Below, one piece after another: positions 5,090 to 40,419 of a stretch of DNA of 64,000 bases; position 1 is the first letter of the stretch; the number at the start of each line of letters is the position of its first letter. The notes beneath the pieces are model-generated. The model made no database searches. It saw only the letters and a program-made list of their open reading frames with translations, and was not told the origin of the DNA. Source of the stretch: Deltaproteobacteria bacterium. Its GTDB lineage: Bacteria > Myxococcota_A > UBA9042 > PHBI01. The position numbers were made by a program, and so were the translations under genes. The stretch is taken from contig SBGO01000356.1 in the NCBI GenBank assembly GCA_006226565.1, positions 748 through 64,747 on the forward strand, in the 5' to 3' direction.

Positions 5090-5166
5090 GCGCGGTTAGC
5101 TCAGCTGGATAGAGCGTCGGCCTCCGGAGCCGAAGGCCACAGGTTCGAATCCTGTACCGCGCACCA
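5090..5166 (+). tRNA. tRNA-Arg (anticodon CCG), 77 nt including 3' CCA
   Basis: Cloverleaf folded by hand: acceptor GCGCGGT/ACCGCGC, D-stem GCTC/GAGC, anticodon stem TCGGC/GCCGA with loop CTCCGGA, T-stem ACAGG/CCTGT, T-loop TTCGAAT. Confidence 0.9.
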
Positions 5167-6493
5167 ACTCGAAGCCGCCTTGGACAACGGTCCCCGTGAC
5201 CCCGTCGAAGGCGGCTTTTTCCGTGTTGGGGGCCCCTGTCTCCAAATCGTCTCCAAAGGTCGTCTCGGAGCCGACGGCGGCGCGGGCCTGCGCGACCTGC
5301 TCCGGCGACTCGGCGACGGCGGCCTCGGCGAAGAAGCGGAGGCGGTTGATCTCCTCGCCCAGGTAGTCGTCGCTCAGGTGCGAGTACAGGTCGATCGTGG
5401 TCTGGATGTCCTTGTGCCGCAGGACGCGCTGGACGAAGGCCAGGGACGCGCCGCGCATGACGAGGATCGACGCCGTCGTGTGCCGGAGGTCGTGCCACCG
5501 GATCGGGCGGACGTTGGCCTTGGGCCAGAGGCGGTGCCCGTGGACCGGGCAGCGGCGGAGGCGGTTGTCGGCGTGGGTCTCGGCGTGCTTGCAGCCCTTC
5601 TTGCGGCAGACGTGCGTGTAGCTGTCGGCGAGGCCGGCGCGGCCGAGGGCGCGGCGGACGACGTCGCAGAGGTCGGCGTCGCGGCGGAACGGGGAGCCGT
5701 CGGGCTGGGCGAAGACGAGGGCGCCGGGCGAGGCGTCGAGGGCGGCGCGCAGGAAGGGGACCAGCTCGTCGGCGATGGGGACGACGCCGTGGTGGCCGTC
5801 CTTGGTGACGGCGCGGTCGTGTGAGCCGCGGATGTAGATGCGGCGGGCCTCGAAGTCGATGTCCCGGCGCTTGAGGGCGAACAGCTCGCCTTTCCGCATG
5901 CCGGTGTAGATGGCTGTCGCGGCGAGCCACCGGTGGTGCGGCTCCATGACGGCCAGGACGGGCGCGACCTCGTTCGGGCGCAGGTAGGTCGGTGGGCGCT
6001 TGGAGACGCGCCGCCGAGTGACCTTCGCGACCGGGCTCACGCCGTGTACGCGGCCGACCTTCGCGGCGGCGTTGAACGCCCGCGACAGGAAGTTCCGTAG
6101 GTGGTTCACCGTCTGCGGGCTCAGGCCCTCGCGGTCCTTGCCGCGCAGGTAGCGCTCGATGACGGCCGGGGTCAGCTCGCGCAGCGGGAGGTCCCAGAGC
6201 TTCGCCGACGCCAGGTGCTTCTGAATCGTCCTCCGGTTGCTCTCGTCCGCCGCGAGCGAGGCGGACACCTCGTCGAGCCACCACTCCATGAGGTCGCCGA
6301 CGGTGTCCTGCGTCTTCTGCGGCAGGGGCTCGAGCCCCTCGCGCTGCCGGTCGGCGTGGAGCTGCAGCTCGGCGGCCATCCGCTCGGCGTCCACCTTGCG
6401 CTTGGCGAGGCGGACCTCCTTCCACCGGCCGTCGGAGCCCTTGTACTTCCCGTACCAGCCGTCGCGGCCCTTCTTCTTGAACACGGTCGTCAT
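5096..6493 (-). CDS. int: Tyrosine-type site-specific integrase (phage integrase family); C-terminal codons run through attL/tRNA sequence
   Basis: Start MTTVFKKKGRDGWYGKY at 6493; C-terminal catalytic region ...WHDLRHT...IDLYSH...; ORF reads toward tRNA. Confidence 0.85.
   Translation of the reverse strand: MTTVFKKKGRDGWYGKYKGSDGRWKEVRLAKRKVDAERMAAELQLHADRQREGLEPLPQKTQDTVGDLMEWWLDEVSASLAADESNRRTIQKHLASAKLWDLPLRELTPAVIERYLRGKDREGLSPQTVNHLRNFLSRAFNAAAKVGRVHGVSPVAKVTRRRVSKRPPTYLRPNEVAPVLAVMEPHHRWLAATAIYTGMRKGELFALKRRDIDFEARRIYIRGSHDRAVTKDGHHGVVPIADELVPFLRAALDASPGALVFAQPDGSPFRRDADLCDVVRRALGRAGLADSYTHVCRKKGCKHAETHADNRLRRCPVHGHRLWPKANVRPIRWHDLRHTTASILVMRGASLAFVQRVLRHKDIQTTIDLYSHLSDDYLGEEINRLRFFAEAAVAESPEQVAQARAAVGSETTFGDDLETGAPNTEKAAFDGVTGTVVQGGFELVRGTGFEPVAFGSGGRRSIQLS
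5120..5166 (+). repeat. attL: 47-nt copy of tRNA-Arg 3' part (direct repeat with 40372..40418)
   Basis: Exact 47-nt identity read in sequence. Confidence 0.75.
5171..5224 (+). terminator. Terminator-like hairpin downstream of tRNA (AAGCCGCC...GGCGGCTT followed by TTTTCC)
   Basis: Inverted repeat plus T-run read in sequence; loop unusually long. Confidence 0.35.
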
Positions 6494-6726
6494 CGGTCGC
6501 CCCTGCGGAGCGGGATCACGGCTCCGGCGTCGCTCTCGCTCCCACCCCGAGCGTACTCGACGACCTCGGCCGGGTCGAACCTGAGGTGCCCTCCGAAACG
6601 CAGATGGGGCAGATCGCCGCGTGCAGCGCGCTCGTAGACCCAGCTCCGGCTCACGCGCAGGTACTCCGCGACCTCGGTGGCCGTCCACAGCCGGGCCGAG
6701 CTCACAGGCATCGTCTTGGTCGTCAT
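6490..6726 (-). CDS. AlpA/excisionase-family HTH DNA-binding protein
   Basis: Start MTTKTMPVSS... with GGGAGGAAG RBS; ATGA overlap with int; HTH TEVAEYLRVSRSWVYERAARGDLP. Confidence 0.7.
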   Translation of the reverse strand: MTTKTMPVSSARLWTATEVAEYLRVSRSWVYERAARGDLPHLRFGGHLRFDPAEVVEYARGGSESDAGAVIPLRRGDR

Positions 6727-7194: not shown

Positions 7195-9174
7195 CTAATC
7201 ATTGTCGTCGTCCGGCCATAGACGCCTGGCGTCCACGACCACGACGCTGCGGCGTCTGCCGTGGATGGAACGCTGGACGCTGAACTTGCCGAGGCGGTGT
7301 TGCAGAAGAACACCGCTGTCACGCCAGTCGCGCATGAGTCCTTCGTACGCGAAGCCCTCCAGCAGCACGCGCTCGTGCAATGCGCGGGTCGGAAACGCGA
7401 CCCAGCCCTCCTCCTTGTGGTGCCATGCGATGATGTCGCGTTGCTCTGCGTTTGCTGTCCTGCTCGAGGCGTCCGCGACCTTGTGCGGATTCTCGTCGAC
7501 CCAGCTCGCGACGAGCTCGAGCCCCCGCGCGGCACCGCCGGCATCGTCAATGTCGTTGACGATGCTCGGCCATAGCGCGGTCCATGGCTCAGGGATCGTC
7601 CACCGGCCGTCCGAGTCATCGGGGAGGCTCAGCGCGCGCTCGGCGAGCCGCAGCGTCAGCTCCAGCACCGCCCGGTACCGGACCATGCGTGTTTCCTGAG
7701 AGGACTTCACGTTGGCGAGCAGCGACGACAGGATCTCTTCATACATCTCGGCCAACTCTGCGTCGCCAATCGTCATCATGTGCTGGACGAGGAGCGGCCC
7801 GGCGTGTCCGAAATTCGACTGGAGCGCCACCTCGACCTCAGCGATCAGACCGCGCGCAACCGGCACGTCGAGGCCGTCGAAGGGCGAGCCTTCGACCTCC
7901 ATCGTGCGGGTGCGCTCCCCGCCACCCTCGCTGAAGCTGACCGCAGGGGCTTCGCCCGTAGAGATGCACGTCGTCTGCCACGCGCCGGTCTGCCGCACCT
8001 GAGCGTCCGCGGTGCCTCGACCTCGGCCTCGCCCGTTGCCGATCGTCGACAACAGCGCCGGGACTGTCGTCTTGCCACGGGCGTCCTTCGTGTCGTCGAC
8101 GAACAGGGGAAGGTGCCGACGGCGGCCGATGGTCAGCTCAAGGTAGGTGTATGTGCTCGACCACGAGGTGACGAGAGAGTCCGGGCCCATGAACGGCTGC
8201 CCCCAGATCGACGCTGCGTAGCGAAGCGTCGTCGTCTTGCCCACCGAGGTCGTGCCGTGGAAGTCGACCACGAAGCTCGACGCACGAACGCCCAGGCGGA
8301 AGAGCAGCGGCGCCGCGAACGAAACGAGCAGCGCGAGCGTGATCCGCGGGAGGTACTTGACCCGATCGATCGCGTCGCGCCAGCGCCGGAACTCGCCCTC
8401 GGCCCGAAGCCCTTCGACCCAGCCATCCTCCGAAGTCGACTTCAGGCGGACCCAGCCTGCCGATGCCCATGTCGCGGGGTTCTTGTCATCGGGCTCGACG
8501 ATCGCACGCGGGCTGATGACCTTGTTTCCCCAGATGAAAGTCTCCCGATCAGCCCAGCCCATCGCGGTGGCTCCGCGAGCTGCGGGTAGCTCCGAAAGGT
8601 TGGCCTCCTCGTATGCACCGAGGAACTTGACGAGCCCGGCGGCGTTGTCGGTGCGAACCGGCAGCCCGTAGTCGGCGAGTTGCTTGATCAGTCGCGCATC
8701 GGCGAGGACGCTGCGGACCATGACCCGTTGCTGCCAGCCCGTCGCGCCACGCCACGCGAGCACCATGTGGTTGACGCCGGCATCGTCGACGACGCGGCCC
8801 AGCACCTGCACCGGGCACGACAGCACGGGGATCTCCTCGAACTCATAGCCCGCGGAAGGGTCGCCGTCTGTCGACTTCGATTTCGCCTCCCACCGAGCCA
8901 CGCCCCGGTCGCTGACTGCGTATCCCCTTGGCACGACGAGCTTGGGGGCCGGTGCGTCGGGGCATCCGCGTCCGACTCGGACGAGCGACCCATCCCCTAG
9001 ACCACCATCGCCCAAGGCCCCCGAGTACAGCTCGCGACGCGGCACGTTCTTCGCGTTCACGGTGCGATTTGCCATGGCGGCCGGCTTGACCCGGACAGCG
9101 TCCACGTCCGGCGTTGTCCGTTCCGTGTACGTGCCGTCCACAAAGCGATCGGCGTCGTCCCTACTGCTACTCAT
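7195..9174 (-). CDS. DUF927-like P-loop NTPase (phage/plasmid primase-associated helicase-like replication protein)
   Basis: Start MSSSRDDADRF at 9174 (8-nt overlap with upstream primase); Walker A GTTSVGKTT; architecture as in P4/PICI pri-rep modules. Confidence 0.7.
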   Translation of the reverse strand: MSSSRDDADRFVDGTYTERTTPDVDAVRVKPAAMANRTVNAKNVPRRELYSGALGDGGLGDGSLVRVGRGCPDAPAPKLVVPRGYAVSDRGVARWEAKSKSTDGDPSAGYEFEEIPVLSCPVQVLGRVVDDAGVNHMVLAWRGATGWQQRVMVRSVLADARLIKQLADYGLPVRTDNAAGLVKFLGAYEEANLSELPAARGATAMGWADRETFIWGNKVISPRAIVEPDDKNPATWASAGWVRLKSTSEDGWVEGLRAEGEFRRWRDAIDRVKYLPRITLALLVSFAAPLLFRLGVRASSFVVDFHGTTSVGKTTTLRYAASIWGQPFMGPDSLVTSWSSTYTYLELTIGRRRHLPLFVDDTKDARGKTTVPALLSTIGNGRGRGRGTADAQVRQTGAWQTTCISTGEAPAVSFSEGGGERTRTMEVEGSPFDGLDVPVARGLIAEVEVALQSNFGHAGPLLVQHMMTIGDAELAEMYEEILSSLLANVKSSQETRMVRYRAVLELTLRLAERALSLPDDSDGRWTIPEPWTALWPSIVNDIDDAGGAARGLELVASWVDENPHKVADASSRTANAEQRDIIAWHHKEEGWVAFPTRALHERVLLEGFAYEGLMRDWRDSGVLLQHRLGKFSVQRSIHGRRRSVVVVDARRLWPDDDND

Positions 9175-10264
9175 GACCCACCCCCGGTCGGGAGCGGTAC
9201 ACGTCGCAGCGCCGCCCAATCGTGTCGTAAATGCCTTTGAAGTAGCGCTCTCCCGCAGGATCGTTATCGGTGCGCACGACCACGCGCGAACCGCTCGGGA
9301 CGCGTGCGGCGATTTCGGGCGTCCACGAGCCGGCCACGATCCCGAAGACCGCCCACTCCGGCTGCGCGGCCCAGCAGAGGAAATCGATCTCGCCCTCCGC
9401 GATGGCGACATCGAGAGGCGCGGCGTCGTACTGCAAGACGATCCTCGCGCCCTCGTTCGCCATGACGGCCCCCTTCACGGTTGAGCCCCGAGGCGTCGGG
9501 CACTTCAGCCCGTGCGGCGGCGCGGCGTCGAGGCGGCACCAGCGTGCGCGCAGCGTCACCGGGCGCGGACCGCCTCCGTTCCGCGCGTCGTACACGTAGC
9601 CGGGCATGTACAACGGCACCATCAGGCGCCATCCGGTCCGGTGCCACGCGCGACCGGCGTGTTGAGCCCACGGGGGACGCAGGCCACGACGAAGGTCAAC
9701 GAGCGGTGCCCACGGCGGGAGCACCCGCGCCTCGTCCATCACCGTCAACTCGGCGAGCATTGCGTCGCTCACACCACGGCTGCGCAAGTAGGCGAGTACC
9801 TCGGTGTCGTCCCGGAGGGGCTGTCCGACCTGCCAGAGCGCGTCTACCTCAACGAGGGAGAGGCCACAGGGGGAGTCCGGATCGCGCGGTGCCGTCTCCC
9901 GCGGCTTCGCCCCTTGCACCTGCTTCGAGGCCGTCCACGGCGAATCCTGAAACGCCCTGCGACTCAACCCCATGAGATCGGCCGTGCGGCGTACGACCTG
10001 CTTGAAGTCGCGTCGGACATCCAGCCCATCCACGACGGCGACGAGGTCGAACGCGTCCCCACGGGCGTCGCAGCGGAAGCAGTACCATGTTCCTTCGTTC
10101 AAGCTGAACGTCGGTCGTCCGCCCTCCTTGCACTTCATGGGGCAGTAACCGCGCCAGTTCTCGCCGCGAGTGTTCACGAGCCGGACGCCGAGCGCCACGG
10201 CGAGCTCTCGGCAGTCGCAGTGTTCGCGCACCCGTCGCGCGTCGATGTCCGGACGGTCATTCAT
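9167..10264 (-). CDS. DNA primase, CHC2 zinc finger + toprim domain
   Basis: CHC2 motif YCPMKCKEGGRPTFSLNEGTWYCFRCDARGD; toprim VVVRTDNDPAGE. Confidence 0.8.
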   Translation of the reverse strand: MNDRPDIDARRVREHCDCRELAVALGVRLVNTRGENWRGYCPMKCKEGGRPTFSLNEGTWYCFRCDARGDAFDLVAVVDGLDVRRDFKQVVRRTADLMGLSRRAFQDSPWTASKQVQGAKPRETAPRDPDSPCGLSLVEVDALWQVGQPLRDDTEVLAYLRSRGVSDAMLAELTVMDEARVLPPWAPLVDLRRGLRPPWAQHAGRAWHRTGWRLMVPLYMPGYVYDARNGGGPRPVTLRARWCRLDAAPPHGLKCPTPRGSTVKGAVMANEGARIVLQYDAAPLDVAIAEGEIDFLCWAAQPEWAVFGIVAGSWTPEIAARVPSGSRVVVRTDNDPAGERYFKGIYDTIGRRCDVYRSRPGVGHE

Positions 10265-10273
10265 GAGGCACCG

Positions 10274-10468
10274 CTACTCGTCGCCGTGGGTGTAGGCCGC
10301 GCGGCGATGCGACTTCAGCCACTCCTGGACCTCGGTCGGGTCGAACCGCACGGCCCGCGGGCCGAGGTAGACGCAGGGGATGCGTCGACTCCGGACCCAC
10401 GAGTAGAGCGTCGTCACGCTCACACCCAGCCTCTTCGCCATCTCATCGTACCCGAGCAAGTCGTTCAT
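10274..10468 (-). CDS. AlpA-like HTH transcriptional regulator/excisionase family (64 aa)
   Basis: MAKRLGVSVTTLYSWVRSRRIPCVYLG HTH. Confidence 0.7.
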   Translation of the reverse strand: MNDLLGYDEMAKRLGVSVTTLYSWVRSRRIPCVYLGPRAVRFDPTEVQEWLKSHRRAAYTHGDE

Positions 10469-10802
10469 CGTTGAACCTCCTACAGCTCACGAGAACTAGC
10501 TGTACAAGCCGCCGACCGCTGGGTCACCGGGCGCTAAGTAGGCACTTGCCCTGAGGACCTAGCACCCACCAAGCAAGACCCCGCGCGCAAGACGGCGCTC
10601 AGAACGATGCACTGCGGCCTTGGCGATAGCGCGGGGCGGAGCGGTGGGGGGGCTTCGGCTCATGACGAGGGCGCCGAGGCCCCCGAGGCCGTTCGTGCAC
10701 AGGGACCCCTTGTGCGGGCTGCGTCTCGACCCGTCCCACCAATCACACCCTTGCGATACGCGTTCAAGCTCGACATCCTCGGTTCAGACCGAGGAGGAAC
10801 TC

Positions 10803-11861
10803 GTGGACAAGACCGGCGCAGACGACGCCCGCAGGCGTCTCGACGGGGCACAAGCGAGGCTAGATGCCGCTACCCGCCGGCGCTTGGCGCTCGAACTGTT
10901 CAACCACAGCACCGGAATCGGTGTGAAGGCAGAGGAGCTGGCAGCACGGGAATTCCCACTGACGCCGTGTCGGTCGTGGGACATACAGCATGCTTTCAGG
11001 TTCGCTGAGAGCGCCCGCAGCCGATTCATCGCCAGTGTGAAGGAATTCGAAGCCTCCAAGCGTCAGCTCGGCCGACTCGCGGGTGTCAAGCAATTGCTGG
11101 CCGATGTCGTGATGGACACCGAACCCGCGAGGGCCCACAGCGACGCCTGGACGACGGGGTGGCCGACGCTCAAGATCCACCACGCAGTCAAGCGGCTCCA
11201 ACATGAGTTGGCGAGGGTCGACTCCGAGGTCGTCGAAGCGGTGGCGTCACTGAACTGGCTCAACCATCGCGGCAACGTCGCGCGGCCGTTTGAGCCGGAT
11301 GTGGTGTTCCGCCGAGAGCTCGTGCGATGGCTCCTCGTCGTCCGCAGGGGACAGGCGATCGGGAGGGTCGACGCCTCGAAGCTGTGGAATACGCCCCCCC
11401 CGGCGGGCTTGGAGTCCGTCCCAACCTGGGCGGTCGCCGCGGAGACGAGCGTCGAGGACTTGGCGCGCCCCCACTGGCCTAGCCTGGCAACCGTCGATAG
11501 CGCTGGAGATATTCACCCGGAGTCGTTCAAGGCGATGCAGTACGAGGCTTTGAGGCGGCGCGTCGTCACCGAACAGCGACCTGGTGCATGGTTGACGCAG
11601 GAGGACGTGGCGTTGCTCCTCATCGCCGCGGACGTCGAGAAGGCGAGGCTGAGCGATGTATGCGAGGCTGTGCGACGCGAGTGGCGGGCCATCAAGGCGC
11701 GTGCATTCGAGGCCGAACAGACACCTGAGCGCATCAAGCCGCTGCTTCGCATCCAGCCCCGTCTGGAGCGCGGGCTGGCCAAGGAAAGTCGGAACCCGGT
11801 TCCTGATTCGCGCAATGGGACGGTGGGCATCGCAGCGGACACGTGTGCTGCCGAAGATTAG
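10803..11861 (+). CDS. Hypothetical protein (352 aa), first gene of a two-gene helicase module
   Basis: GTG start with GAGGAGGAA 5 nt upstream inside ORF 10620..11861; stop abuts ATG of next gene; lower GC3 than flanks. Confidence 0.5.
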   Translation: MDKTGADDARRRLDGAQARLDAATRRRLALELFNHSTGIGVKAEELAAREFPLTPCRSWDIQHAFRFAESARSRFIASVKEFEASKRQLGRLAGVKQLLADVVMDTEPARAHSDAWTTGWPTLKIHHAVKRLQHELARVDSEVVEAVASLNWLNHRGNVARPFEPDVVFRRELVRWLLVVRRGQAIGRVDASKLWNTPPPAGLESVPTWAVAAETSVEDLARPHWPSLATVDSAGDIHPESFKAMQYEALRRRVVTEQRPGAWLTQEDVALLLIAADVEKARLSDVCEAVRREWRAIKARAFEAEQTPERIKPLLRIQPRLERGLAKESRNPVPDSRNGTVGIAADTCAAED

Positions 11862-14507
11862 ATGCTGAGCGATTTCCAATACGACCCCGTCGAAGCCGCA
11901 AAACCCCTGCGCCCGTATCAGGTGGAAGCCGTCGCAGCGCTGTCCGCCGCGCTGGCGAACGACACGACGAGGCCGCAGCTCCTGCAGCTCGCGACGGGGG
12001 GCGGCAAGACCCGCGTGGCGAACGACATCGTGGCACGATGGATCCGCGAGCACGGTGGTCCCGTCCTGTGGATCACGAAGGATTGGCGGCTCCTGTACCA
12101 GGCTGCACGAGATGCCTCACGACGCCATCCTGGGCACATTCTGTACCGCATCGGGGGACGCCGGACCGCCTTGGGGGCACTTTCCGAGGTACCCCGCTGG
12201 TGGACTCCGACACGCAGCACCATCCTCTACTCGACATTCCAGACCGTGCTCCGCCGACTTGATGACGGGGTTCTGGACGGCGTGGCGCTTCTTGTCTGGG
12301 ACGAGTCGCATTGGGGCGAGAACGCGAAGGCAGGGAAGATTCTCACGCAGTGTGCGCGTCAGCGGCGCCCTGTTCTTGGCCTCACGGCAACAGCCCGATG
12401 GGATACGCGATACCACGTCGTCTATTCACGAAGCTTCTTTGACCTTGTCCGCGAAGGCTACCTCGCGCAGCCGGAGACGTGGCGGGTGCGGACGGGGCTA
12501 CGCTGGTCGCCCCGACTCTCGCCCGGTGACAGCGACTTTTCCAATGTATCCTTGCGGGTTCTCGCTGAATCAGCAGAGCGAAACGACGCGATCATCAGGA
12601 CGTACGCCGAGAACGCCGACGAGTTCCGGCGGACGATCGTCTTCGCCTGCAACATCGAGCACGCCAACGAACTCGCAGAACGGTTCTCCAGGGATGGCTT
12701 TGCGGCCCACGCCATCCACACGGAAAACGACGACGCAAAGAACAACGCAGCACTGGAGGGTTTCCGCAGAGGGCGAATCCACATCCTCGTCAACGTCGAG
12801 ATGTTGACGCACGGGGTCGACGTGCCAGATGCCAACACGATCTTCCTGTGCCGCCCGACCCGGAGCGACATCCTGTTCGCGCAGATGGTCGGGCGCGGAG
12901 CGCGCAGAGCCGAAGGCAAGACTCACTTCAACATCGTCGAGTTCACGGACAACCTCTCGAAGTACGGCGAGATCCTGCGGACAACCTCATTCTTCTTCGA
13001 TGGGGCCGGTTCAACATCCGCGGTGCCGCGTTTGCGTTCGCGCTCAGCGCCGCGCGTCTCGCAGCACGCGTTTGATCCGCGCGGCGCACCTCGCTGGATA
13101 CCAGACGACGACTCGTTGCCCGAGAGCTGCCGTGGCCTGTGGTACCGCGAAGGCCAGACCTTCGGGCTGGAGCTCGAACTGACCGAGAGCAGTGCGGCGA
13201 TTCCCAGGCCGCACACGGAGCGCTGGAGCGCCGTTGCCACTGCCCTGCTGGAGGCGCTTCGGCGCGCGATCGGCAGCGAGCTGGTCGCAGCCGCCGCGAC
13301 GCCTTGGTACGCGGGCGGTGGCTCCGGTGGCAAGGACTTCTCGGTCTGGAACGTCGAGTGGGACAGCTCTGCCGGGTGGGAGGTGACGAGCCGAATTCTG
13401 TCCGGCGAAGACGGGTTCATCGAGGTCGATGCTGCCTGCGCAGCGCTCGAAGAAGCGGCAGCGATCCACGGTGTACGCGTCAATTATCGGACTGGGACGC
13501 ACCTTCATCTCGGCTGGCGCCGTGACGACATCGGCGCCCTTCGGAATGCGATCAGGCTTGTGGGCTTGTTCGAGCCGGCGCTCGGAACGCTTGTGGCGCC
13601 GTCAAGGCTCGCGCGCTTTGCGGGCGGTGTCTACGACATCAGCACACCGAATCAGTACTGCCAGCCCGTCTCGAAGGCGGTGTCCGAGCACACGCTGCAG
13701 ACGTGCCATTCGGTCACAGAGCTGCTGCACGGGCTTTCGGACTATGGGCTACGATTCGCGACGTTCAACATCAAGCCTCTAGGGACGCACGGCACCGTCG
13801 AGGTGAGACTCCACAGCGGAACCATCGAGGCTCGCAAGGCGCTGGTATGGGTGAGCTTGTGGCAACAGCTCCTATGGGCGGCCGAGAACAAGACTGGAAT
13901 GCCAGAGTTGGAGTACAGGCAGGTCATAGTCCCCGACGCCGACATCATCGAGCTCGCGCGGGAGTGGCTCCCGGCCGCCATCCAGCCCCTGCAAGCGGCG
14001 TTCCTCGCGCGCGTCGCGCGGCGGCGGGCCGAGGTCGTTGACATGTGGCGGGCGCGTCCAGAGCTGGAGCCGTGGACGGGTTTCGCCGATTGCTGGCTCG
14101 AACTGGCCGTAGACGCGCACGGAGCCGAACCAGGAACGCTAGCCCCCCCGTTTCTCGATGCCGTATTCGACCTGCAGGTTCGGAGCGCCAATCATGGCAC
14201 ATGGCATGATGTCGCAGAGATGCTCGCCATGCTTGTTGTAGATGGCCTACTGGTTGAACCAGCGTTTCTTGAGGCTCCGCCGAACGGCCGTGCTGTCGTG
14301 ACTGCGCGAACGTCCGAGGGCATTGTCCCCGTGCTTCATGTGTGGGACCACCCAGTAGGAATGAAGTTCTGGGTGTACGCCACGCCACCGGGGGAAGATC
14401 TCGGACGGGGGCGTGCCGTCTACACCGAGGTCCGCGCTGCGGACCCATCGTGGTGGAGCCAACTGCTTCGGCTACTCAGCACCACACTCACGGAGGGCCC
14501 GGCGTAG
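11862..14507 (+). CDS. SF2 helicase (ResIII/DEAH-type: TGGGKT, DESH, helicase-C QMVGRGAR) fused to ~450-aa C-terminal domain of unknown function
   Basis: Helicase motifs I, II, VI read in translation; 881 aa. Confidence 0.8.
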   Translation: MLSDFQYDPVEAAKPLRPYQVEAVAALSAALANDTTRPQLLQLATGGGKTRVANDIVARWIREHGGPVLWITKDWRLLYQAARDASRRHPGHILYRIGGRRTALGALSEVPRWWTPTRSTILYSTFQTVLRRLDDGVLDGVALLVWDESHWGENAKAGKILTQCARQRRPVLGLTATARWDTRYHVVYSRSFFDLVREGYLAQPETWRVRTGLRWSPRLSPGDSDFSNVSLRVLAESAERNDAIIRTYAENADEFRRTIVFACNIEHANELAERFSRDGFAAHAIHTENDDAKNNAALEGFRRGRIHILVNVEMLTHGVDVPDANTIFLCRPTRSDILFAQMVGRGARRAEGKTHFNIVEFTDNLSKYGEILRTTSFFFDGAGSTSAVPRLRSRSAPRVSQHAFDPRGAPRWIPDDDSLPESCRGLWYREGQTFGLELELTESSAAIPRPHTERWSAVATALLEALRRAIGSELVAAAATPWYAGGGSGGKDFSVWNVEWDSSAGWEVTSRILSGEDGFIEVDAACAALEEAAAIHGVRVNYRTGTHLHLGWRRDDIGALRNAIRLVGLFEPALGTLVAPSRLARFAGGVYDISTPNQYCQPVSKAVSEHTLQTCHSVTELLHGLSDYGLRFATFNIKPLGTHGTVEVRLHSGTIEARKALVWVSLWQQLLWAAENKTGMPELEYRQVIVPDADIIELAREWLPAAIQPLQAAFLARVARRRAEVVDMWRARPELEPWTGFADCWLELAVDAHGAEPGTLAPPFLDAVFDLQVRSANHGTWHDVAEMLAMLVVDGLLVEPAFLEAPPNGRAVVTARTSEGIVPVLHVWDHPVGMKFWVYATPPGEDLGRGRAVYTEVRAADPSWWSQLLRLLSTTLTEGPA

Positions 14508-14606: not shown

Positions 14607-16205
14607 TCAAACTCGGGCTTCGCCACCTATTGTCGCAACGATGCGGCCCGCGAGAGCCTCGAACACGCTCGCGCTGGCGGGCGCGAATGATGCGTTCCCG
14701 CTGCCGGTTGGTCTGGTGATGACGCGCCCTGTCAAGCCATCGACTCCAATGACCTTCCGGCCGCTGCCGCCGAGTCGAATCTCGCTCGTGCCGTGGACGT
14801 AAGCCTTCCCAATCTGACGCCCCGAGCTCTCATCGTACACGGGGCTACCGGTGTCCACGCCGAAGGTCAGGTGGATTGCCCGATTTTCGACGAGCTGTTC
14901 GCCACGCGCAGACAGCTCGATACTGTCACCCCGAGCAACGAGTAGATCGCCGCGCACCAGTCCGTCGACCATGGCGTCGGCAGCTCGAGCAGACATCCCG
15001 AAAGCGGTCGAGGCAAGCTCGCGAATCTCGGCGCGGGAACGGCCGGTCGCGATCGCCGCATATGACGCCAACTGTTGCAGGGCTCCGACGAGGAACGGGC
15101 GCGCGTCCGCCGTCCCAGGGGGCAATCCCCCGGAGATCTGTGCCACGAGCTTCGCGTATTCCACCGTCCGATCGAAGAGGCCGCCGACGCACACCACACG
15201 GCGTAGCCCGCTGCGACGTCCAGCGCGCCCCGCACGCTGTAGGAACGAGGAAACCCCCGATGGTGCGTCGAAGAGCACGCAGGTATCCACATCCCCGATG
15301 TCGATTCCCACTTCGAGCGTCGTCGTCGCGACGACGAGCCCGACCCGTGCCTTCCGCAGGCGCTCCTCGACGGCCCGTCGTCCGCTGCTGGACAGCGATG
15401 CGTGATGAGCCATGCAATTCTCGCGAAGAAATCCTGTCGAGAGCCAGCCGCAGAGATCCTCGACGCGCCGCTTGCTTCTTGCGAAGCCGATCAACTTTCG
15501 GCTGCCAAGCTCGCGGAGGAAGTCGACAAACGCCTCTCCTCCCTCGCGTCCGGCCCGAACCCAATCGTAGTACGAGACATCCAGTCCCTGCTGGTCCCCA
15601 TCCTCGATGATGATTGGATCTCGCAAGAGCCGCGAGCGCGATGGCAAAGTGAGGTCAGGGATCGTCGCTGAGATACCTATCCTCCGCGCCTTCACCCCCG
15701 ACATGTCGAGGCGCGCTAGCAGCCCCGCGGTCTGAGTACCTCTCGGCCCCTTGAGGAAATCGTGTATTTCGTCGATGAGCACTTCGGTGATGTCGCTGAG
15801 TTCACCAGGACGGCGGCATAGGGTGATATCGAGCCCTTCGGGAGTGCGGATCAGGACGTCGGTCACTTCGTTGTCCCGCACGGTGTTCTTGTCAGACGTG
15901 GCGACGTCGAGCCGCAGCCCCAGTGCTTCGAGGACGGGCGCCATGCGTCGGTGAAGGTCGGACGCGAGGGCGCGCGTCGGAGAGAGTACCAGCGCGCGCG
16001 TCTTCCCCCCTTCGCGTGGCCGATCTAGCAATGCCTCGACCACTGGCAGGAAGGCAGCTTCAGTCTTGCCGCTCCCTGTCGATGCCGTGATCAAACCATC
16101 ACGGTCTGTCCGAAGGCGCTCCAGCGCTTTCTCCTGCACTGGTCGCATCTTTCCACCGAAGCGGCCGAAGAATGCACGCTGTATCCGCTCATGGTTCGCA
16201 GTCAC
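14607..16205 (-). CDS. DExH-box (Lhr/BrxHI-like) helicase
   Basis: Motif I ASTGSGKTEAA, II VLIDEIHDF, III SAT, VI QRAGRAGR; GTG at 16205 gives GTGA overlap with upstream gene; alternative ATG at 16148 has GGTGGA RBS. Confidence 0.75.
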   Translation of the reverse strand: MTANHERIQRAFFGRFGGKMRPVQEKALERLRTDRDGLITASTGSGKTEAAFLPVVEALLDRPREGGKTRALVLSPTRALASDLHRRMAPVLEALGLRLDVATSDKNTVRDNEVTDVLIRTPEGLDITLCRRPGELSDITEVLIDEIHDFLKGPRGTQTAGLLARLDMSGVKARRIGISATIPDLTLPSRSRLLRDPIIIEDGDQQGLDVSYYDWVRAGREGGEAFVDFLRELGSRKLIGFARSKRRVEDLCGWLSTGFLRENCMAHHASLSSSGRRAVEERLRKARVGLVVATTTLEVGIDIGDVDTCVLFDAPSGVSSFLQRAGRAGRRSGLRRVVCVGGLFDRTVEYAKLVAQISGGLPPGTADARPFLVGALQQLASYAAIATGRSRAEIRELASTAFGMSARAADAMVDGLVRGDLLVARGDSIELSARGEQLVENRAIHLTFGVDTGSPVYDESSGRQIGKAYVHGTSEIRLGGSGRKVIGVDGLTGRVITRPTGSGNASFAPASASVFEALAGRIVATIGGEARV

Positions 16206-17413
16206 CGCTTGCGGCCGCCGTGGTACCTTCGGTGATCCATCGCGGCAATCGCGTGCCGGACTATCTCGCGCGTCCCGTCGTTGACATGCTGCGACTTGAC
16301 TTCCTTGACGATCTCCTGGGCAGGAAACGCTACCTTGGTCCCATGTGCAGACTTGTACAAGTCGTGGATTTGACCGACGAGGGCTTCGATGCCGTGGTGA
16401 TCGAACGGGGTGAGCTGGAGCGGTGTGGCGCACACGTCTCGACTAATCGACCGTGCCAAGCCATAGGCGTGCGTGAAAGCCATGACAACGTGGATCCGTG
16501 ATGGGCTCTGCCCAAGATACCGCGGAGAGTAGGAATCGCGGTAGTGCTTGAGGCCACTCGTGTCCATGTTGCTCGCTGCCAGCGCCAAGCCGACCATGAC
16601 GTCCCAGGCCCGTCCAGCCCGATACGACGTACTCGCCCATTCGGTCCGCTCGGCCTCGTCGAGGATCATGACCAATCCTGGGACGCCGGCGTGTGCGAGT
16701 TCATGCGCCAGCCAGTTGATCTTATTCACCGCGTGGTTTGCCGCAGTCATCGCGTTGGGAACGTCTACATGCAAGTGGGCGGCAAGATCTGGTAAGTACT
16801 GAAAACCGAACCTCGCCCAGGTCACCGGAATGTCTCGCTGAAGACGGTCAAACCGCTTCATGATCGCATTCGGTCCGGGGAACTCACGGTAGACACTCTC
16901 GAGAAGGTCATTCTCGGCGGTGAAGTGAAAGCCGCCCCGGCGAAGCGCTCGCAGGAGAATTCCGAGCGCGTCTGAGCCCGCCAGCCTTCGGCCGTCAATG
17001 CGCACGGCGAATGCGCGAGGAAGGGCCATGACCAAGGATCTCGGGTGCTCGGCCGAATTGCTGGACGACCCCATCTCCAGTCGTATGACCGCGTAACCCT
17101 CTTCTTCGGCGCGCAGTGCCAATAGCTCGCACAGATGCGACTTGCCGCTACCGTACTGGCCGACAAGCACCTGGGTGGAGCCGCCGGGACTCCTGCGAAA
17201 GCCGTTGAGAAGTTGGGCGAGTTCAGCATCGCGACCGTATGTGGCGTGTCGGACAACGGCCCGATTCACCACGCCGGCACGCATGGCTTCGAGTGCGGCC
17301 CTCGCCTCGAAGCGACTCGCGAAATCTTCGGTCCTCTTGATGGAGTTCGCGAGCCTGGTTCTCTCCATCAGAAAAGAACGTAGGAGTTCCGCCATCTCAC
17401 GCCGGCCACTCAT
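16202..17413 (-). CDS. P-loop NTPase, BrxD-like (DUF2791-like) paralog B
   Basis: Walker A GQYGSGKSHL, Walker B LVMILDEAE; GGAGGCGAGAAGG RBS. Confidence 0.75.
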   Translation of the reverse strand: MSGRREMAELLRSFLMERTRLANSIKRTEDFASRFEARAALEAMRAGVVNRAVVRHATYGRDAELAQLLNGFRRSPGGSTQVLVGQYGSGKSHLCELLALRAEEEGYAVIRLEMGSSSNSAEHPRSLVMALPRAFAVRIDGRRLAGSDALGILLRALRRGGFHFTAENDLLESVYREFPGPNAIMKRFDRLQRDIPVTWARFGFQYLPDLAAHLHVDVPNAMTAANHAVNKINWLAHELAHAGVPGLVMILDEAERTEWASTSYRAGRAWDVMVGLALAASNMDTSGLKHYRDSYSPRYLGQSPSRIHVVMAFTHAYGLARSISRDVCATPLQLTPFDHHGIEALVGQIHDLYKSAHGTKVAFPAQEIVKEVKSQHVNDGTREIVRHAIAAMDHRRYHGGRKR

Positions 17414-17440
17414 GCCTTCTCGCCTCCGTCGTGGAGTTCG

Positions 17441-18682
17441 CTACCTCGCGTCCGTCACGAAGTTCGAGATTTCGGAGTCGCTAGGCGGACCGGCACTGCG
17501 CGCATGGTACAGGGCCTTGATGAACGTCTTGACGAACATCCGCCGAAAAGAAACATCGACGGTCTCGCGTAGCACGGCCCGTGCGACACGCTCAGCAATC
17601 CGAGCGCCGTCGCCGTCCGAAAGCTTCGGACTCAGACCGGCTGCATTGAACAGGGCAAGCAGCCGCTCGCCCAACGCGACGCAGAATCGCGTCTTGCTTC
17701 CGTCATCCTGGTAGCGATCGTCCAGAACGATCCGCGGCGCCGGAGGCAAGGTGGGGAAGCCTGTCGTCCGGACCCGCTGGTCGAGGGCCTGGTTGTCGGC
17801 GCTCAACATGCTCTTGAATTCGGTCCACCCCGGAATCGAATAGAGGAACATGACTCCGGGCCAGTCCGAGCCCTTGAGGGTCTCGTTGATGATCTGCACG
17901 AGGTTGTTCGAAGCGGTCTTTCGCTCCTTCGTGTTTGCGATGGACAGGGAGCGGTCCCCTTCGTCCATGATGAGAAGCAACCCCGGATAGCCGATCTGTC
18001 GGAGCCACACAGCGAGGGTGCGAATCGCCAGGGAACCACTGCGCACGTCGACCTTCTCGAGAACCCCCTTCCTCTTCAGCGCCGGGGCGATCATGCCCGA
18101 GTTGAGGTAGACCATGACCTCGTCGTATGTGGTGCTGTCACCCGACGCAACCGCGAGACCTGCGAGTTGGATGGCGATCCGCATGCTCGACAGTGGCAGG
18201 TCCCCCGCCTTTTGGAGCACCGACTGGGCGTACTGGACGCTATCACCGTCCCAGTCTGCAGGTGGTTCGACCCATGTCCGAATGATCTCTCCGATGCCGC
18301 GAGCGTTCGGGTGCCCTGGGCGCGGTGCCGTCAGCTGCTTGACGACGCTACTGTAGATGAGATCGAAGCGCGTAAGCGGGCAGGAGTCCTTGTTGAGCTC
18401 AATGAAAGCGCTTGCGAACCCGTGGCGGTGGGCTAGGCGCTCTACCGCCCGCAAATAGTGGGTCTTGCCACCACCGTAGTACGCTTCGACGAGCTTGAAG
18501 GTCCCCTGGTCCGTGTGGCGCAGAAGCCCATCCTCTCCGAAGTACTCCTCCTCGAACACGCGCAAATCGTCATCGATGCCAACCGAGATGAGGTTCGTCA
18601 CGCTGGGCGACGGTGCGACTCCGCCCACCAAGCTCTCGATCGCAGCGCGTGCATCATATCGATTGAGATCGGAAATGGTCAT
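17441..18682 (-). CDS. P-loop NTPase, BrxD-like (DUF2791-like) paralog A
   Basis: Walker A YYGGGKTHYL, Walker B LLLIMDEGD; AAGGAGA RBS; ATGA overlap with upstream gene. Confidence 0.75.
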   Translation of the reverse strand: MTISDLNRYDARAAIESLVGGVAPSPSVTNLISVGIDDDLRVFEEEYFGEDGLLRHTDQGTFKLVEAYYGGGKTHYLRAVERLAHRHGFASAFIELNKDSCPLTRFDLIYSSVVKQLTAPRPGHPNARGIGEIIRTWVEPPADWDGDSVQYAQSVLQKAGDLPLSSMRIAIQLAGLAVASGDSTTYDEVMVYLNSGMIAPALKRKGVLEKVDVRSGSLAIRTLAVWLRQIGYPGLLLIMDEGDRSLSIANTKERKTASNNLVQIINETLKGSDWPGVMFLYSIPGWTEFKSMLSADNQALDQRVRTTGFPTLPPAPRIVLDDRYQDDGSKTRFCVALGERLLALFNAAGLSPKLSDGDGARIAERVARAVLRETVDVSFRRMFVKTFIKALYHARSAGPPSDSEISNFVTDAR

Positions 18683-19494
18683 CGGTCGGTCTCCTTGCGT
18701 TTCGCGCTGAGATTGATCGCGGCGATTGGGCTGTGCTGCGACGGCTTCCGTGGATTGTCGTTCTTGGGAATGGAGACGTAGCGCGCTGGGTCTTTCGTGA
18801 CGTGTTGGGTCGCCCCCCTGAACGTCAGCTCCGGGTAGCCTTCGTCACGTCCATCGATAGCAAGACGCTGGATTCGCGCCAGGACATACCCGAACGCCTC
18901 GCGGGTGAGTTTGATCTTTGGAAATCCCGTGCCCGTGCCCAACTCCCGGCGTGCATCTTTTCCATAGATGCAGAACAGCCGCACCAGATTGACCGGGTGC
19001 TCCGTGGGCTCCGAGTATACTGCGTTCAGCCAATCGAGCCCGGCCGTGAGTCCCTTTGCTGCGTCCTGGACAAGCAGGAGAGCGTTCTCGATTCCCCTAA
19101 TAATCTCGAGCGCCGCTTCCGCCAGCTCTTCGGCACGCGTCGCTTCGATCTTCGCGACCGAGATGGTATCCAAGACCGTCAGATTCCATCGGCTCTCCCG
19201 CTCTTCATGCATCTCAACGCAGCCGAATGTTATCCGTGGCGGCCTGTACTCGAAGAAGCACTGTTCCCGCTCGGCGATCTGGCGCAGGTTCTTTCCTAGG
19301 TCCCGCCGCAGGTCCTCGGCCCGCTGCGAAGCGTCCGAGATCCAGCCATTCACGACTCCATCTGGAATGCCGAGAGCTTCTTGGACCCTGCGCGCGGCGC
19401 CCTCGAATCCAGAGACGTCACCCCGCTCCTTGAGAGCTTCCAAGGCAGACGCAACTTCATCGGTCTTGCGCGAGAAATCGACGGAAACGCGCAT
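18679..19494 (-). CDS. Hypothetical protein (271 aa), first gene of the BrxD-like/helicase module
   Basis: Start MRVSVDFSRKTDEV inside ORF 18679..19665; coupled to next gene. Confidence 0.55.
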   Translation of the reverse strand: MRVSVDFSRKTDEVASALEALKERGDVSGFEGAARRVQEALGIPDGVVNGWISDASQRAEDLRRDLGKNLRQIAEREQCFFEYRPPRITFGCVEMHEERESRWNLTVLDTISVAKIEATRAEELAEAALEIIRGIENALLLVQDAAKGLTAGLDWLNAVYSEPTEHPVNLVRLFCIYGKDARRELGTGTGFPKIKLTREAFGYVLARIQRLAIDGRDEGYPELTFRGATQHVTKDPARYVSIPKNDNPRKPSQHSPIAAINLSAKRKETDR

Positions 19495-20035
19495 CTTCGG
19501 ACCTAGCCCCCCTCGGCCTTTGGTGCTCAATCTGATCCTCGTTGTACTCTGGTTCTGTCGGGTTCCGTCCGTGAAGGCGGTACCCTCGCGGACGTTGGCA
19601 TCTTGGTGCTGACGCGCTCGGCGCTCGCAGCTGCGAGGCGACCACGAGACGCGCTCGCGTGTCAACGACCCGGAGTCTCCGAAATGTTACCAACAAGCGG
19701 ATGGCTGGTCGCTTTCGACCTCCAATCTGGTCGGATCGGGACCAGGCCAGCGGGAGCGAGTGTTGGGGCTGCATCCAGCGGGACCCGACGTTCTCGGACC
19801 AAGGGGGTCACGGTGCTGGCTGCAGCGACCTAGAGCCAAGCATCGCGATCGCGGAGCGAAGACGTTGAACCGTGGCGGGGGTGTCGGAGCGTCAGTACGT
19901 CGGAGACTCGGATTATGGGAACGACATCGAAGCCGTGCGGGAATGAGTTCCGCGAGCGTGCCGTGCTACGCTGATTGAAGACTCGGCTCCGCAAGCTCCA
20001 TGCCGACACAGCTGCCAGTAGCTGTCCTGGCTCGG

Positions 20036-20806
20036 TCATGACATTGCCGACACGGCCTTCAGCGTGACGGCGAGCTCGTACTCGAGCAACATGACATCGG
20101 CGACCTGAGACACCGCGTAGCGGATCCGGTCCGTGATGTGACCGGCGACGATGACTCCCCGGACCGGCTTGCCAACGGCCAGATGGTGGACGACCCAGCC
20201 CTTGTAGCGAAGCACCTGGCCGACGACCGCGTCCGGCCCCTTGCTGACCTTCAGCTCGATCACAACCAGCCCCTCGTTCGCGTCCTGGGCCAGGATGTCG
20301 ATGCGACCAACGGGCGTGGTGTACTCGACTCCGGCGTTCCCGTCTTCGTCGGCGTATAGGGACAGCCCCGGCTCGATGAGCTCCAAGTGGTCCGCTAGGT
20401 AGTCTCGGAGGTGGGCCTCAGCCGCAAAGATGCCCGACTCCGAAGGCACCGGCTCGGGCGCGTCAATGCGCCGGACCAGGTTGCGGCCATCTTCTTGCTC
20501 GACGATCTCCCAATCGCCGTGCTTCGCGGAATCGAAGAGCTCGAGTTCGCCCCGGGTCGGCCGGAACAGGAAGTCGTACTGGAGGTTCGCCTTCCGGGGC
20601 TTCTTGTTCTCCGGGTAGTGGACCCGCGAAGCGTGGTTCACCGTGCAAACGATGATCTGACAGGAGATGGTGTTCCGGTTGGTATCCGGCCAGCGCTCGA
20701 GGATCCAGTTTCGTACGGCGACGTTTGTCGTGGACGGTCCCAACTCGTCCACGGCGCGGCGGATCATCTGCCAGACGTAGGGGCGGTCTTCCGCGTTGGC
20801 GGTCAT
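20036..20806 (-). CDS. PD-(D/E)xK nuclease, NucS/DUF91-like C-terminal fold (GRIDILAQD...VVIELKVSKG)
   Basis: Nuclease motif in translation; AGGAGAG RBS. Confidence 0.65.
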   Translation of the reverse strand: MTANAEDRPYVWQMIRRAVDELGPSTTNVAVRNWILERWPDTNRNTISCQIIVCTVNHASRVHYPENKKPRKANLQYDFLFRPTRGELELFDSAKHGDWEIVEQEDGRNLVRRIDAPEPVPSESGIFAAEAHLRDYLADHLELIEPGLSLYADEDGNAGVEYTTPVGRIDILAQDANEGLVVIELKVSKGPDAVVGQVLRYKGWVVHHLAVGKPVRGVIVAGHITDRIRYAVSQVADVMLLEYELAVTLKAVSAMS

Positions 20807-20871: not shown

Positions 20872-21321
20872 TCAGTCGTCCTTCCATGCGAGGCGCTTCG
20901 GCTCCTCCTCGCCCCTCATCACGCGAACGAGGAAGTCGTAGTCGTCCTCCGTGACCTCGATGATGCCGCCCTTGCAGTAGATGTAGTTCGACGGTGTCGT
21001 CTTCATTTCGCTCGGGAAGCACGACAGCGACCACAGAGTGTCGGCCACCGGGCGGGCGAAGCCGGACTCGGTGAAGGCCACATTGCAGCGGTGCTCATAG
21101 ACCTTGCCGCCCGAGAAGATGGGCGTGTCGTCCACGAAGGTCTCGCCAGCAACCGTGCCGATGCCGTCGAGCTGCTGCACCCGCGAGAGGTACGCGAGGA
21201 ACGGGTCGCCGACGGAGAGCTCCTTCAAGAGCTTTCGGGCGCCTGTGCGGACGCCGATGGTGCGGTGCGCCTTCACGTCCCCGTACGTCTCGGGGCGGAA
21301 CATCATCAGCCAGTATTTCAT
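20872..21321 (-). CDS. EVE (PUA-like) domain protein
   Basis: Start MKYWLMMFRPETY with GGAGGG RBS; EVE-typical N-terminal motif; ~149 aa. Confidence 0.65.
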   Translation of the reverse strand: MKYWLMMFRPETYGDVKAHRTIGVRTGARKLLKELSVGDPFLAYLSRVQQLDGIGTVAGETFVDDTPIFSGGKVYEHRCNVAFTESGFARPVADTLWSLSCFPSEMKTTPSNYIYCKGGIIEVTEDDYDFLVRVMRGEEEPKRLAWKDD

Positions 21322-21443
21322 GTCGTCCCTCCGTCGAATTGGCGCCTCAGCAACGCCATGCACAGTGAGTCAGCCTAGACGGCGTTGTGCTTCGCCTCTG
21401 GAGCTGCAGGATGCCGGGTCCCGAGTCTCTCGCCGTACGCACA

Positions 21444-27042: not shown

Positions 27043-27050
27043 CGTTCACC

Positions 27051-29828: not shown

Positions 29829-30138
29829 CCCAGATTCGCTCCTAGGTGCTGCACGAGGCGGCGGTCCTTTCAGCCTACTCGACGCGATAGCGGGCGAGCA
29901 CTTCGACCGTCTTGAGGGACGCCGTCACGTGCTCTGATATCGTCCGCCCGACAGGCGAACCGTGCGGTGACGTGCGTAGCCATTCTTGTCAGCGTTGTCG
30001 TAGTACATGAGAAGCTTCTCGTCTTCTTGGGTGCACATTGTCGGGGAGCTTCTCGGCGCCCTTGACGAACGTACCGTCGTCACGTTCCTGCCAGCATGCC
30101 TTTGAAGCCCGCCCGCGCCAGTAGTTCCGGCTGACTAC

Positions 30139-36286: not shown

Positions 36287-36561
36287 GCAGCCTCCTGGTG
36301 TGCCCTGACAGAGGGCGAGATCGCTGCTGGGCGGGGATACGGCGCGGGTTCGCGCCATCGCCGCGACACGTCGTCCGGCTGTCGCATGGGCTCAGGTGGT
36401 GTCCTCACATCTCGCTGTCCACAATCCATCGCAGGCCGTTCTCCGACGCTGGCGACCGTTAGTCTCTATCAATCTGTACCGGCTCACTGTCAACCGAGCC
36501 CGTGAACTGTTCCGGGTCCTTCGAAGACTCTGAGCGTTGGCATGGCTCTGACCATGCGAAC

Positions 36562-40371: not shown

Positions 40372-40418
40372 GCCTCCGGAGCCGAAGGCCACAGGTTCGA
40401 ATCCTGTACCGCGCACCA
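40372..40418 (+). repeat. attR: 47-nt tRNA-Arg 3' fragment (direct repeat of 5120..5166)
   Basis: Exact identity read in sequence. Confidence 0.75.
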
Positions 40419-40419
40419 A

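Follow-up and report, generated by a model that had tools for sequence, protein, structure and literature searches.

Within a tRNA-bounded genomic island, the 64,000-nucleotide stretch of DNA analysed here (the window; positions 748 to 64,747 of contig SBGO01000356.1 from a Deltaproteobacteria bacterium) carries a gene that encodes a superfamily 2 (SF2) DExH helicase fused to a glutamine-synthetase-like amidoligase. This gene, gene B (11862-14507, plus strand, 881 amino acids (aa)), represents a widespread family of such fusions, and it directly follows a smaller gene, gene A (10803-11861, plus strand, 352 aa), whose GTG start lies 6 nt after a GAGGAGG sequence. We give about an even chance to the reading that the B protein is a self-contained gamma-glutamyl-type ligase coupled to a DNA motor, which acts in conflicts with phages or other mobile genetic elements (MGEs), either alone or as an add-on to bacteriophage exclusion (BREX) systems. 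Both domains are already catalogued, and the protein is not categorically new; what is new is amidoligase chemistry as the fused effector of a defence-island helicase. The original prediction for this DNA had centred on A and B as a two-gene module, but the gene that deserves attention in the window is B, whether by itself or combined with the BREX cassette of the island, rather than A+B as a conserved pair.

The N-terminal half of B has the sequence and predicted fold of an SF2 DExH helicase. The core (11904-12908, plus strand) consists of a RecA1/ResIII lobe (residues 15-178) and a RecA2/Helicase_C lobe (residues 245-349), which match ResIII with an E value of 9e-12 and Helicase_C with an E value of 7e-13, both above the Pfam cut-offs, and the AlphaFold model of this half has two alpha/beta lobes. 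The ResIII-like motifs that had been pointed out earlier are indeed present (TGGGKT at residues 45-50, DESH at 147-150 and QMVGRGAR at 341-348), as is TAT at 175-177. We assessed conservation in an alignment of 34 family members with 35-64% identity, in which the conserved block corresponds to query residues 1-745, and found the key residues of helicase motifs I, II, III and VI to be invariant in all 34. The best fold matches of residues 1-370 are RadD (E = 3e-17, 26% identity, PDB 7r7j), SauUSI, XPB, LlaBIII and HsdR. Similarly, the best NCBIfam matches of the helicase half are RadD and EcoAI-type R subunits, far below their cut-offs. The identification of B as RadD was rejected, based on a score of 90.7 bits against an equivalog cut-off of 720 (NF053632), a match that covers only the helicase core, and a C-terminal half that is an amidoligase. 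The best PADLOC match of B is PbeA, in the helicase part only, and a match to BrxHI is marginal (E = 0.003) and restricted to the C-lobe. The helicase half is a DNA-type SF2 motor, with DNA as its probable track, and is not a RadD orthologue. It resembles translocases that act in DNA repair and in restriction.

The C-terminal half, in which the original prediction had recognised no motif, does hold a known domain. After a flexible linker (residues 381-393; 13002-13040, plus strand; predicted local distance difference test score (pLDDT) below 50), residues 433-669 (13158-13868, plus strand) match Amidoligase_2 (PF12224) with an E value of 4.8e-11 and 43.4 bits, above the curated cut-off of 22, over profile positions 4-243 of 245. 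The PHROGs matches of this half, phrog_2443 and phrog_7469, are likewise annotated ‘amidoligase enzyme’, and comparison by sequence with the PDB, using either a single sequence or a profile, gave only noise. The fold search agrees with the Pfam assignment. A separate AlphaFold model of residues 405-881 (pLDDT 85.9, predicted template modelling score (pTM) 0.72) had 123 Foldseek matches at E ≤ 1e-3 in the PDB, to YbdK/GCS2 (1tt4, 1r8g), glutamine synthetase (GS) and gamma-glutamylmethylamide synthetase (GmaS), and 53 matches in BFVD, nearly all of them to phage proteins called ‘amidoligase enzyme’. By predicted structure, the PF12224 domain of B has a GS-like catalytic fold.

The residues expected of an active ligase are also conserved. 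Of the 34 aligned members, all have E437, E439, D501, R582 and R649, and no fewer than 90% have E499, E507, H547, H549 and E647; in a 16-member alignment, H547 and H549 are invariant. Motifs of the E-x-E, H-x-H and E-x-R type would fit ATP- and metal-dependent acyl-phosphate chemistry, and the conserved residues probably map to the metal and ATP ligands of GS. Both engines of B look catalytically competent, because the motor motifs and the ligase residues are invariant or at least 90% conserved.

Downstream of the ligase domain lies an alpha-helical extension (residues 670-745; 13869-14096, plus strand), conserved through W745 in the 34 members and helical in the models, and then a clade-specific C-terminal tail (residues 746-881; 14097-14507, plus strand), which appears from the secondary structure of the model to be a small alpha/beta domain. 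With tblastn, the tail was found only in three of the closest relatives (L001, L005 and L006; loci and family members are given by our L and P numbers), and inspection by eye shows tail-like motifs in P0019 and P0073 as well. The tail has no PHROGs match. We do not think that it is a hidden GGACT domain, since by eye it contains no YGTL/YGSL motif of the kind typical of GGACT. In the AlphaFold model of the whole protein, built with 34 homologues (mean pLDDT 86.8, pTM 0.49), residues 381-393 and 748-761 are disordered; the two halves are confidently predicted, but, given the pTM, their mutual orientation is not.

The fusion is found well beyond the window. Among 5.8 billion proteins searched with B there were 939 matches, and nearly all of the best 120 are full-length fusions of a helicase with PF12224, at 38-64% identity. 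More than 100 full-length members are available, and PF12224 is precomputed on nearly all of the listed relatives. The hosts, based on genome and metagenome scans, are Myxococcota, ‘Deltaproteobacteria’, Geobacter, Bdellovibrionota and Planctomycetota, with further members in some metagenome-assembled genomes (MAGs) of Pseudomonadales and Chloroflexi and in cultured Pyxidicoccus and Corallococcus. Most other members have an N-terminal extension of 90-230 aa, sometimes with a SAP domain, and occasional members carry an additional fusion, to GGACT (P0062), FGE-sulfatase (P0038) or AAA_16 (P0075). Family members are annotated just as ‘helicase’ or ‘hypothetical’, PADLOC 2.0 has no model that covers the ligase half, and a full-text literature search, which did not extend to the PF12224 catalogue of Iyer et al. 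2009, found no paper on an amidoligase-helicase fusion. The fusion is absent from 2.9 million IMG/VR contigs, in which only generic phage helicases were matched (26-30% identity over residues 16-371). Similarly, the PLSDB plasmids gave no match to the fusion, and sequenced phages gave one weak amidoligase match (27.9% identity, E = 2e-6). A phage or plasmid origin of the fusion was rejected on the basis of these searches.

Relatives of B are repeatedly placed at the ends of BREX operons. For this analysis, the open reading frames (ORFs) of the neighbourhoods were called by a crude heuristic based on the longest ORF and the GC content at third codon positions (GC3), and some calls or N-terminal extensions in GC-rich loci may be wrong. 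In the closest clade (L005, L006, L019 and L046; 62-69% identity), the B homologue lies 33-70 nt after brxA on the same strand, where it ends a PglXI-BrxHII-PglZ-BrxA operon that is orthologous to the type 3 BREX system of the window (46-65% identity; tblastn synteny). These are three or four independent observations of B with type 3 BREX, plus the window. A second type of BREX is found next to more distant members. In L027 (1370-13257), from a Polyangiaceae MAG, PglZ, BrxD, BrxHI, B and a GGACT partner follow one another on one strand, the most complete layout of this kind that we saw, and in L045, B is convergent with BrxHI-BrxD-PglZ-PglX, in the same geometry as that in which B faces a BrxHI/SngC-like helicase in the window. 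The candidate placement beside BREX comprises, with the window counted, at most 7 of ~75 loci, some of them not independent. As a candidate for a canonical BREX component, B was rejected: its only BREX match is the marginal one to BrxHI, and it is an orthologue of neither BrxHI nor BrxHII.

A gene for a GGACT protein accompanies the family in about ten loci overall. In L004, L027, L043/44/47 and L053, the gene immediately after the B homologue, often overlapping it, encodes a partner of ~360-400 aa whose C-terminal part is a GGACT/AIG2 domain; shorter GGACT genes are found in L063, L064/66, P0024 and P0073, and in P0062 the domain is fused to B. GGACT enzymes cleave gamma-glutamyl-amines to 5-oxoproline, and the pairing of an amidoligase with a GGACT/AIG2 cyclotransferase was reportedly noted by Iyer et al. 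2009, as related in the Pfam description of PF12224. Such pairs also occur in prophages (PMC11318856). The N-terminal ~210 aa of the partner, which have no Pfam match, are 69% identical between L004 (12667-13878) and L043 (11068-12153); the helicases of these two loci are each only ~50% identical to query B. Judging from its sequence, this N-terminal domain appears to co-evolve with the system. In the window, neither tblastn nor Pfam on the island ORFs found a GGACT-like gene.

Near other family members we found genes for type I restriction-modification, Septu PtuA with HNH, SoFic, DrmC, IetA, reverse transcriptase and toxin-antitoxin systems. Neither clustering of the neighbours nor comparison of 139 neighbour ORFs from 27 loci with Pfam and PADLOC revealed a family-wide neighbour, only local synteny. 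In L012, L013, L015 and L017, the B homologue is followed at once by a gene convergent with it, at a distance of 7 nt in the first three. The pooled neighbour ORFs include three SoFic matches (PADLOC) and three Fic/DOC matches (Pfam), which we attribute to this convergent gene without per-gene confirmation. The SoFic synteny of these four loci, which come from closely related lake MAGs, may be simple shared ancestry.

Gene A does not share the wide distribution of B. Both are real genes, B with hundreds of homologues and A with a coding GC pattern and four remote homologues; GC at the three codon positions is 0.68/0.53/0.77 in A and 0.67/0.50/0.76 in B, a pattern typical of coding DNA, and both proteins are found verbatim in public data, annotated as hypothetical (EP329_09850 and EP329_09855). 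The junction reads GAT TAG ATG, such that the stop codon of A directly abuts the ATG of B, just as had been described. Gene A has no match in Pfam, PADLOC, NCBIfam or PHROGs, and a word-seeded search of 5.8 billion proteins returned no homologue beyond A itself. An exhaustive HMMER search of 1.84 billion representatives yielded four remote homologues of 321-359 aa (E values of 1e-13, 2e-12, 9e-9 and 1e-4), none of which has a Pfam match. Three conserved blocks are common to A and these homologues (alignment A4), and two of the blocks might, on a weak reading of their sequence, be helix-turn-helix (HTH)-like. We found no nuclease motif in A, in agreement with the earlier remark that the partner shows no obvious one.

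If A were a conserved partner of B, we would expect to find the two together elsewhere. In L168 (3799-4827), the A homologue is divergent from an HTH_17/DnaB-like/integrase backbone, a position like that in the window, and the contig ends after it, as it does after the A homologue of L170. In L171 (638-3642), the A homologue overlaps by 4 nt a gene for a leucine-rich repeat (LRR) protein of more than 643 aa, and in L167 it follows a gene for a Peptidase_S24/TnsA-N protein, and the next gene is not B-like. The downstream gene can therefore be read in two of the four loci, and in neither case is it a B-like helicase. Conversely, tblastn over ~85 loci of B relatives found no A-like gene, and comparison of A with the GGACT partner and with upstream genes from L001, L006 and L172 revealed no resemblance. 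Of ten genes located upstream of B relatives, Pfam assigned some to EF-Ts, HIT or HTH_3 and the rest to no family; these genes are mutually unrelated. We rejected A as a conserved partner of B, based on the readable A loci and the ~85 B loci; the pair is a one-off association, in which A is co-transcribed with B in this locus only. The original prediction had likened the pair to systems of a small partner and a helicase with Hachiman-like logic, and had stated that failure to find the pair conserved elsewhere would speak against it. That an SF2 helicase is fused to a second module, here an enzymatic one, stands; the Hachiman-like logic fails, because the pair is not conserved as a unit and is unique to the window, and there is no match to HamA or HamB (PADLOC gave no HamB match among the 25 listed for B, and none at all for A). 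We regard A as a member of a rare MGE-linked family, perhaps a regulator, and not as an obligate partner; genes of this family may be leaders, linked to mobile elements, that precede large and variable cargo genes.

The promoter of the A-B operon presumably lies in the divergent intergenic region between an excisionase (xis)-like gene and gene A (10469-10802, to which no strand is assigned), where a scan upstream of A found no sigma-70-like consensus and the promoter and terminator scans found nothing exceeding shuffled expectation. This region contains an inverted repeat (10648-10684) with arms of 12 nt, GGGGGCTTCGGC / GCCGAGGCCCCC, and a loop of 13 nt, which could be an operator or an RNA hairpin.

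In the mechanism that we propose, the motor of B would engage DNA, presumably that of an invading or replicating phage. Enzymes of the YbdK/GS/GmaS type use ATP to activate a glutamate-type carboxylate as an acyl-phosphate, to which an amine is added. The ligase of B would likewise spend ATP on an acyl-phosphate, with the gamma-carboxyl of glutamate as the most probable site, and might then join the activated carboxyl to an amine associated with DNA, for example that of a polyamine, of an amino-bearing base or of a lysine in a protein bound to DNA. Alternatively, engagement of DNA might switch the ligase on. In relatives with a GGACT partner, the partner would cleave or recycle the gamma-glutamyl-amine bonds. 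The specific step of gamma-glutamyl tagging is doubtful, and the fullest version of the mechanism, in which B is a BREX-associated effector that travels along DNA and attaches a covalent amide tag, for example a gamma-glutamyl group, to a DNA-bound phage or host factor, to amino-bearing DNA or to polyamines, with GGACT proteins as erasers, is a long shot.

Several points weigh against the reading of B as a motor-coupled ligase in defence. The gamma-glutamyl chemistry is suggested by analogy with the fold neighbours and by the GGACT partner, a partner that is missing from the very window in which we propose the chemistry, and we know of no PF12224 protein with an established substrate. The relative geometry of the two halves of B is not confidently predicted (pTM 0.49). 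The BREX system of the window is 7 kb from B and on the opposite strand, with other systems between, and B lies outside its operon. The BrxA proteins of L006 and L019 are identical and L005 and L019 come from one MAG, so these loci are perhaps not independent. Many distant members are surrounded by housekeeping genes, and a defence gene is absent from the 4.5 kb around them; the apparent defence association of the family is uncorrected for background. The putative defence role is drawn from sequence, models and neighbourhoods. Finally, A is translationally abutted to B, which suggests that A matters in this locus.

The BREX neighbourhoods could also be read more narrowly, with B as a dedicated BREX accessory that acts with PglZ, PglX or BrxC, for instance by attaching a covalent mark, on unmethylated DNA, to a phage target or to a component of BREX, and that has little function where BREX is absent. 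This reading overlaps with the one we favour, and we consider it possible but would not bet on it. It draws on the four closest-clade loci in which B follows brxA within 70 nt on the same strand and on the orthologous type 3 BREX of the window island, and the adjacency of distant B clades to another BREX type (L027 and L045) would suggest repeated recruitment. However, no BREX gene was detected near most of the members whose flanks are long, B in the window is separated from the BREX operon by 7 kb and other systems and is on the other strand, and B is not a canonical BREX gene, with its marginal BrxHI match on the C-lobe only; moreover, defence genes cluster for reasons besides a common function. 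The abutment of A and B, which implies one operon, raises instead an obligate two-component system of the Hachiman kind, with a helicase that regulates and a small partner that acts as sensor or executor. The overlap of an A homologue with an LRR gene in L171 is compatible with this idea, in that the A family may adapt different large effectors. We think it very unlikely, given that A and B occur together only in this window, that wherever the sequence after one of the four A homologues is readable it shows no B-like gene, that the genes upstream of B relatives are unrelated or absent, and that neither a match to HamA or HamB nor a nuclease motif was found.

Two further readings accept the domains of B and assign them other work. 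In one, which we judge unlikely, B is a metabolic effector of abortive infection: the helicase only senses foreign DNA, and the ligase does not tag macromolecules but drives a futile cycle (with GGACT, in relatives) from glutamate and ATP through gamma-Glu-X to 5-oxoproline, or makes a toxic or signalling small molecule. In its favour, a ligase and a cyclotransferase together form an ATP-wasting cycle (the gamma-glutamyl cycle), the fold neighbours are all small-molecule gamma-glutamyl ligases, and GGACT partners recur in relatives. The version in the window has no GGACT gene, however, nothing shows allosteric coupling of the two modules, and the reading as a whole is pure inference. In the other, quite unlikely in our view, B has no immune role and is either a RadD-like repair helicase with a metabolic appendage or a servant of the mobile element, in anti-defence or in modification of the element's own DNA or protein. 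RadD is indeed the best structural and NCBIfam match of the helicase half, many relatives reside among housekeeping genes, and A-B is the first cargo operon beside the xis and replication (rep) module, a placement shared by the A homologue of L168. Against this, the RadD score is far below the cut-off, the genes are island-borne with a patchy distribution and atypical GC3, relatives sit at the 3′ end of host BREX operons, and the family is absent from the IMG/VR viral contigs, sequenced phages and plasmids.

The island in which A and B reside has all the features of a tRNA-integrated genomic island, with a tyrosine integrase beside a tRNA gene, border repeats and deviant composition. GC content is 72-76% at both ends of the window and is lower in a stretch from ~6 to 44 kb. 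The last 48 bp of a tRNA-Arg(CCG) gene (5090-5167, plus strand; ARAGORN) form attL (5120-5167, plus strand), and an exact copy of this 3′ end forms attR (40372-40419, plus strand) at the far border; the two 48-bp repeats are the limits of an integrated element of 35.3 kb, to which all of the lower-GC region studied here belongs. The GC3 of A and B (0.77 and 0.76) is far below the 0.93-0.97 of flanking host genes. The original prediction had concluded from the lower GC3 that the genes were acquired, which is correct because the low-GC stretch is bounded by the tRNA gene and the exact direct repeat. It had also placed the genes in a defence context, and this view is borne out by the island's other cargo: a type 3 BREX system, a Shango- or BrxD-BrxHI-like operon and EVE and NucS-like genes. 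A single ORF of 3247 codons with a GC3 of 0.95 occupies 52285-62028 (plus strand) of the host flank.

The backbone of integration and replication lies at the tRNA end of the island, entirely on the minus strand and identified with Pfam. It consists of the tyrosine integrase (5096-6688), a DUF927 protein (7195-9411), a CHC2-zinc-finger/Toprim primase-like protein (9167-10264) and an HTH_17 excisionase-like gene (10274-10468), from which A-B, as the first cargo operon, is divergent. The longest ORF of the integrase overlaps the tRNA gene by ~70 nt, and of its 530 residues only 235-366 belong to the catalytic domain; this call may be wrong in its reading frame or at its 3′ end.

The cargo genes from 14607 to 37548 are also on the minus strand. 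Convergent with B is a gene for an SngC/BrxHI-like DEAD helicase (14607-16433; Pfam and PADLOC), with two tandem genes for BrxD/SngB-like ATPases beside it (16202-17413 and 17441-18682; Pfam and PADLOC) and, in the same operon, an ORF of 328 aa (18679-19665; ORF call). Each ATPase aligns with the N-terminal part of the BrxD profile, and the two are therefore separate genes and not one frameshifted gene. The operon (14607-19665) is either Shango-like or a remnant of BREX type 2. Between it and the BREX system, a gene for a DUF7669 and NucS_C endonuclease-like protein (20036-20806) adjoins one for an EVE-domain protein (20872-21369), both identified with Pfam; the two could form a modified-base-reading nuclease pair. 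The type 3 BREX system (21444-35924) is complete, with PADLOC E values from 6e-59 to 0 and Pfam support. PADLOC identifies BrxA (21444-22187), PglZ (22184-24214), BrxHII (24211-27042), PglXI (27051-29828) and BrxC (32067-35924), and an extra HATPase_c_4 gene of 675 aa (30139-32166) lies between brxC and pglXI. Upstream of brxC, an ORF of 194 aa (35774-36358), possibly brxF, has no Pfam or PHROGs match. An IS66-family transposase gene (36562-37548) is located in the island near attR, and the short ORFs of the 38-40 kb segment have no Pfam match.

Helicases of defence islands are usually fused to or paired with nucleases, NADases or proteases. To our knowledge, no characterised anti-phage system has shown the chemistry of an ATP-dependent amide ligase in the role of second module. 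The repeated placement of the family at the end of BREX operons of two types, 3 and 2, is a testable lead into BREX, and we know of no resolution of the mechanism by which BREX excludes phages. Gamma-glutamyl-amine chemistry, for which direct assays are possible, is suggested by the pairing with gamma-glutamyl cyclotransferases. The leads of BREX linkage and ligase chemistry stand, even though the earlier A+B model fails and the domain is catalogued. If B were a BREX-associated amide-tagging effector, it would be the first immune mechanism in which ATP-dependent amide ligation is coupled to a DNA motor, and its chemistry would offer a way into the question of how some BREX systems halt phage replication while leaving DNA uncut.

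The likeness of B to known systems is in each case partial. In BREX, with the gene orders brxF-brxC-pglXI-brxHII-pglZ-brxA for type 3 and pglZ-brxD-brxHI for type 2, relatives of B follow brxA or follow or face brxHI, but most members of the B family are not beside BREX. Hachiman, which pairs the HamA nuclease with the HamB helicase, resembles A+B in having two co-transcribed genes, of which the second encodes a large SF2 helicase, in a defence island; it differs in that A lacks a nuclease motif and does not accompany the helicase elsewhere, and in that the effector-like module of B is fused to the helicase itself. RadD, HsdR, LlaBIII, SauUSI and XPB have the DExH motif set in common with B, but B contains no nuclease or methylase domain. 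The ligase of B has the same catalytic-domain fold as GS, YbdK (GCS2) and GmaS (Foldseek probability 1.0, E values of 6e-6 to 1e-4), but with only 11-15% identity and modest TM-scores of 0.31-0.46. PF12224, the GS-like ‘COOH-NH2 ligase’ family of Iyer, Abhiman, Burroughs and Aravind 2009, which includes the phage amidoligases, shares with B both the fold and the conserved acidic, His and Arg residues; within this family, B is distinguished by its fusion to a full SF2 helicase, by the conserved helical extension of ~75 aa and by the clade-specific tail.

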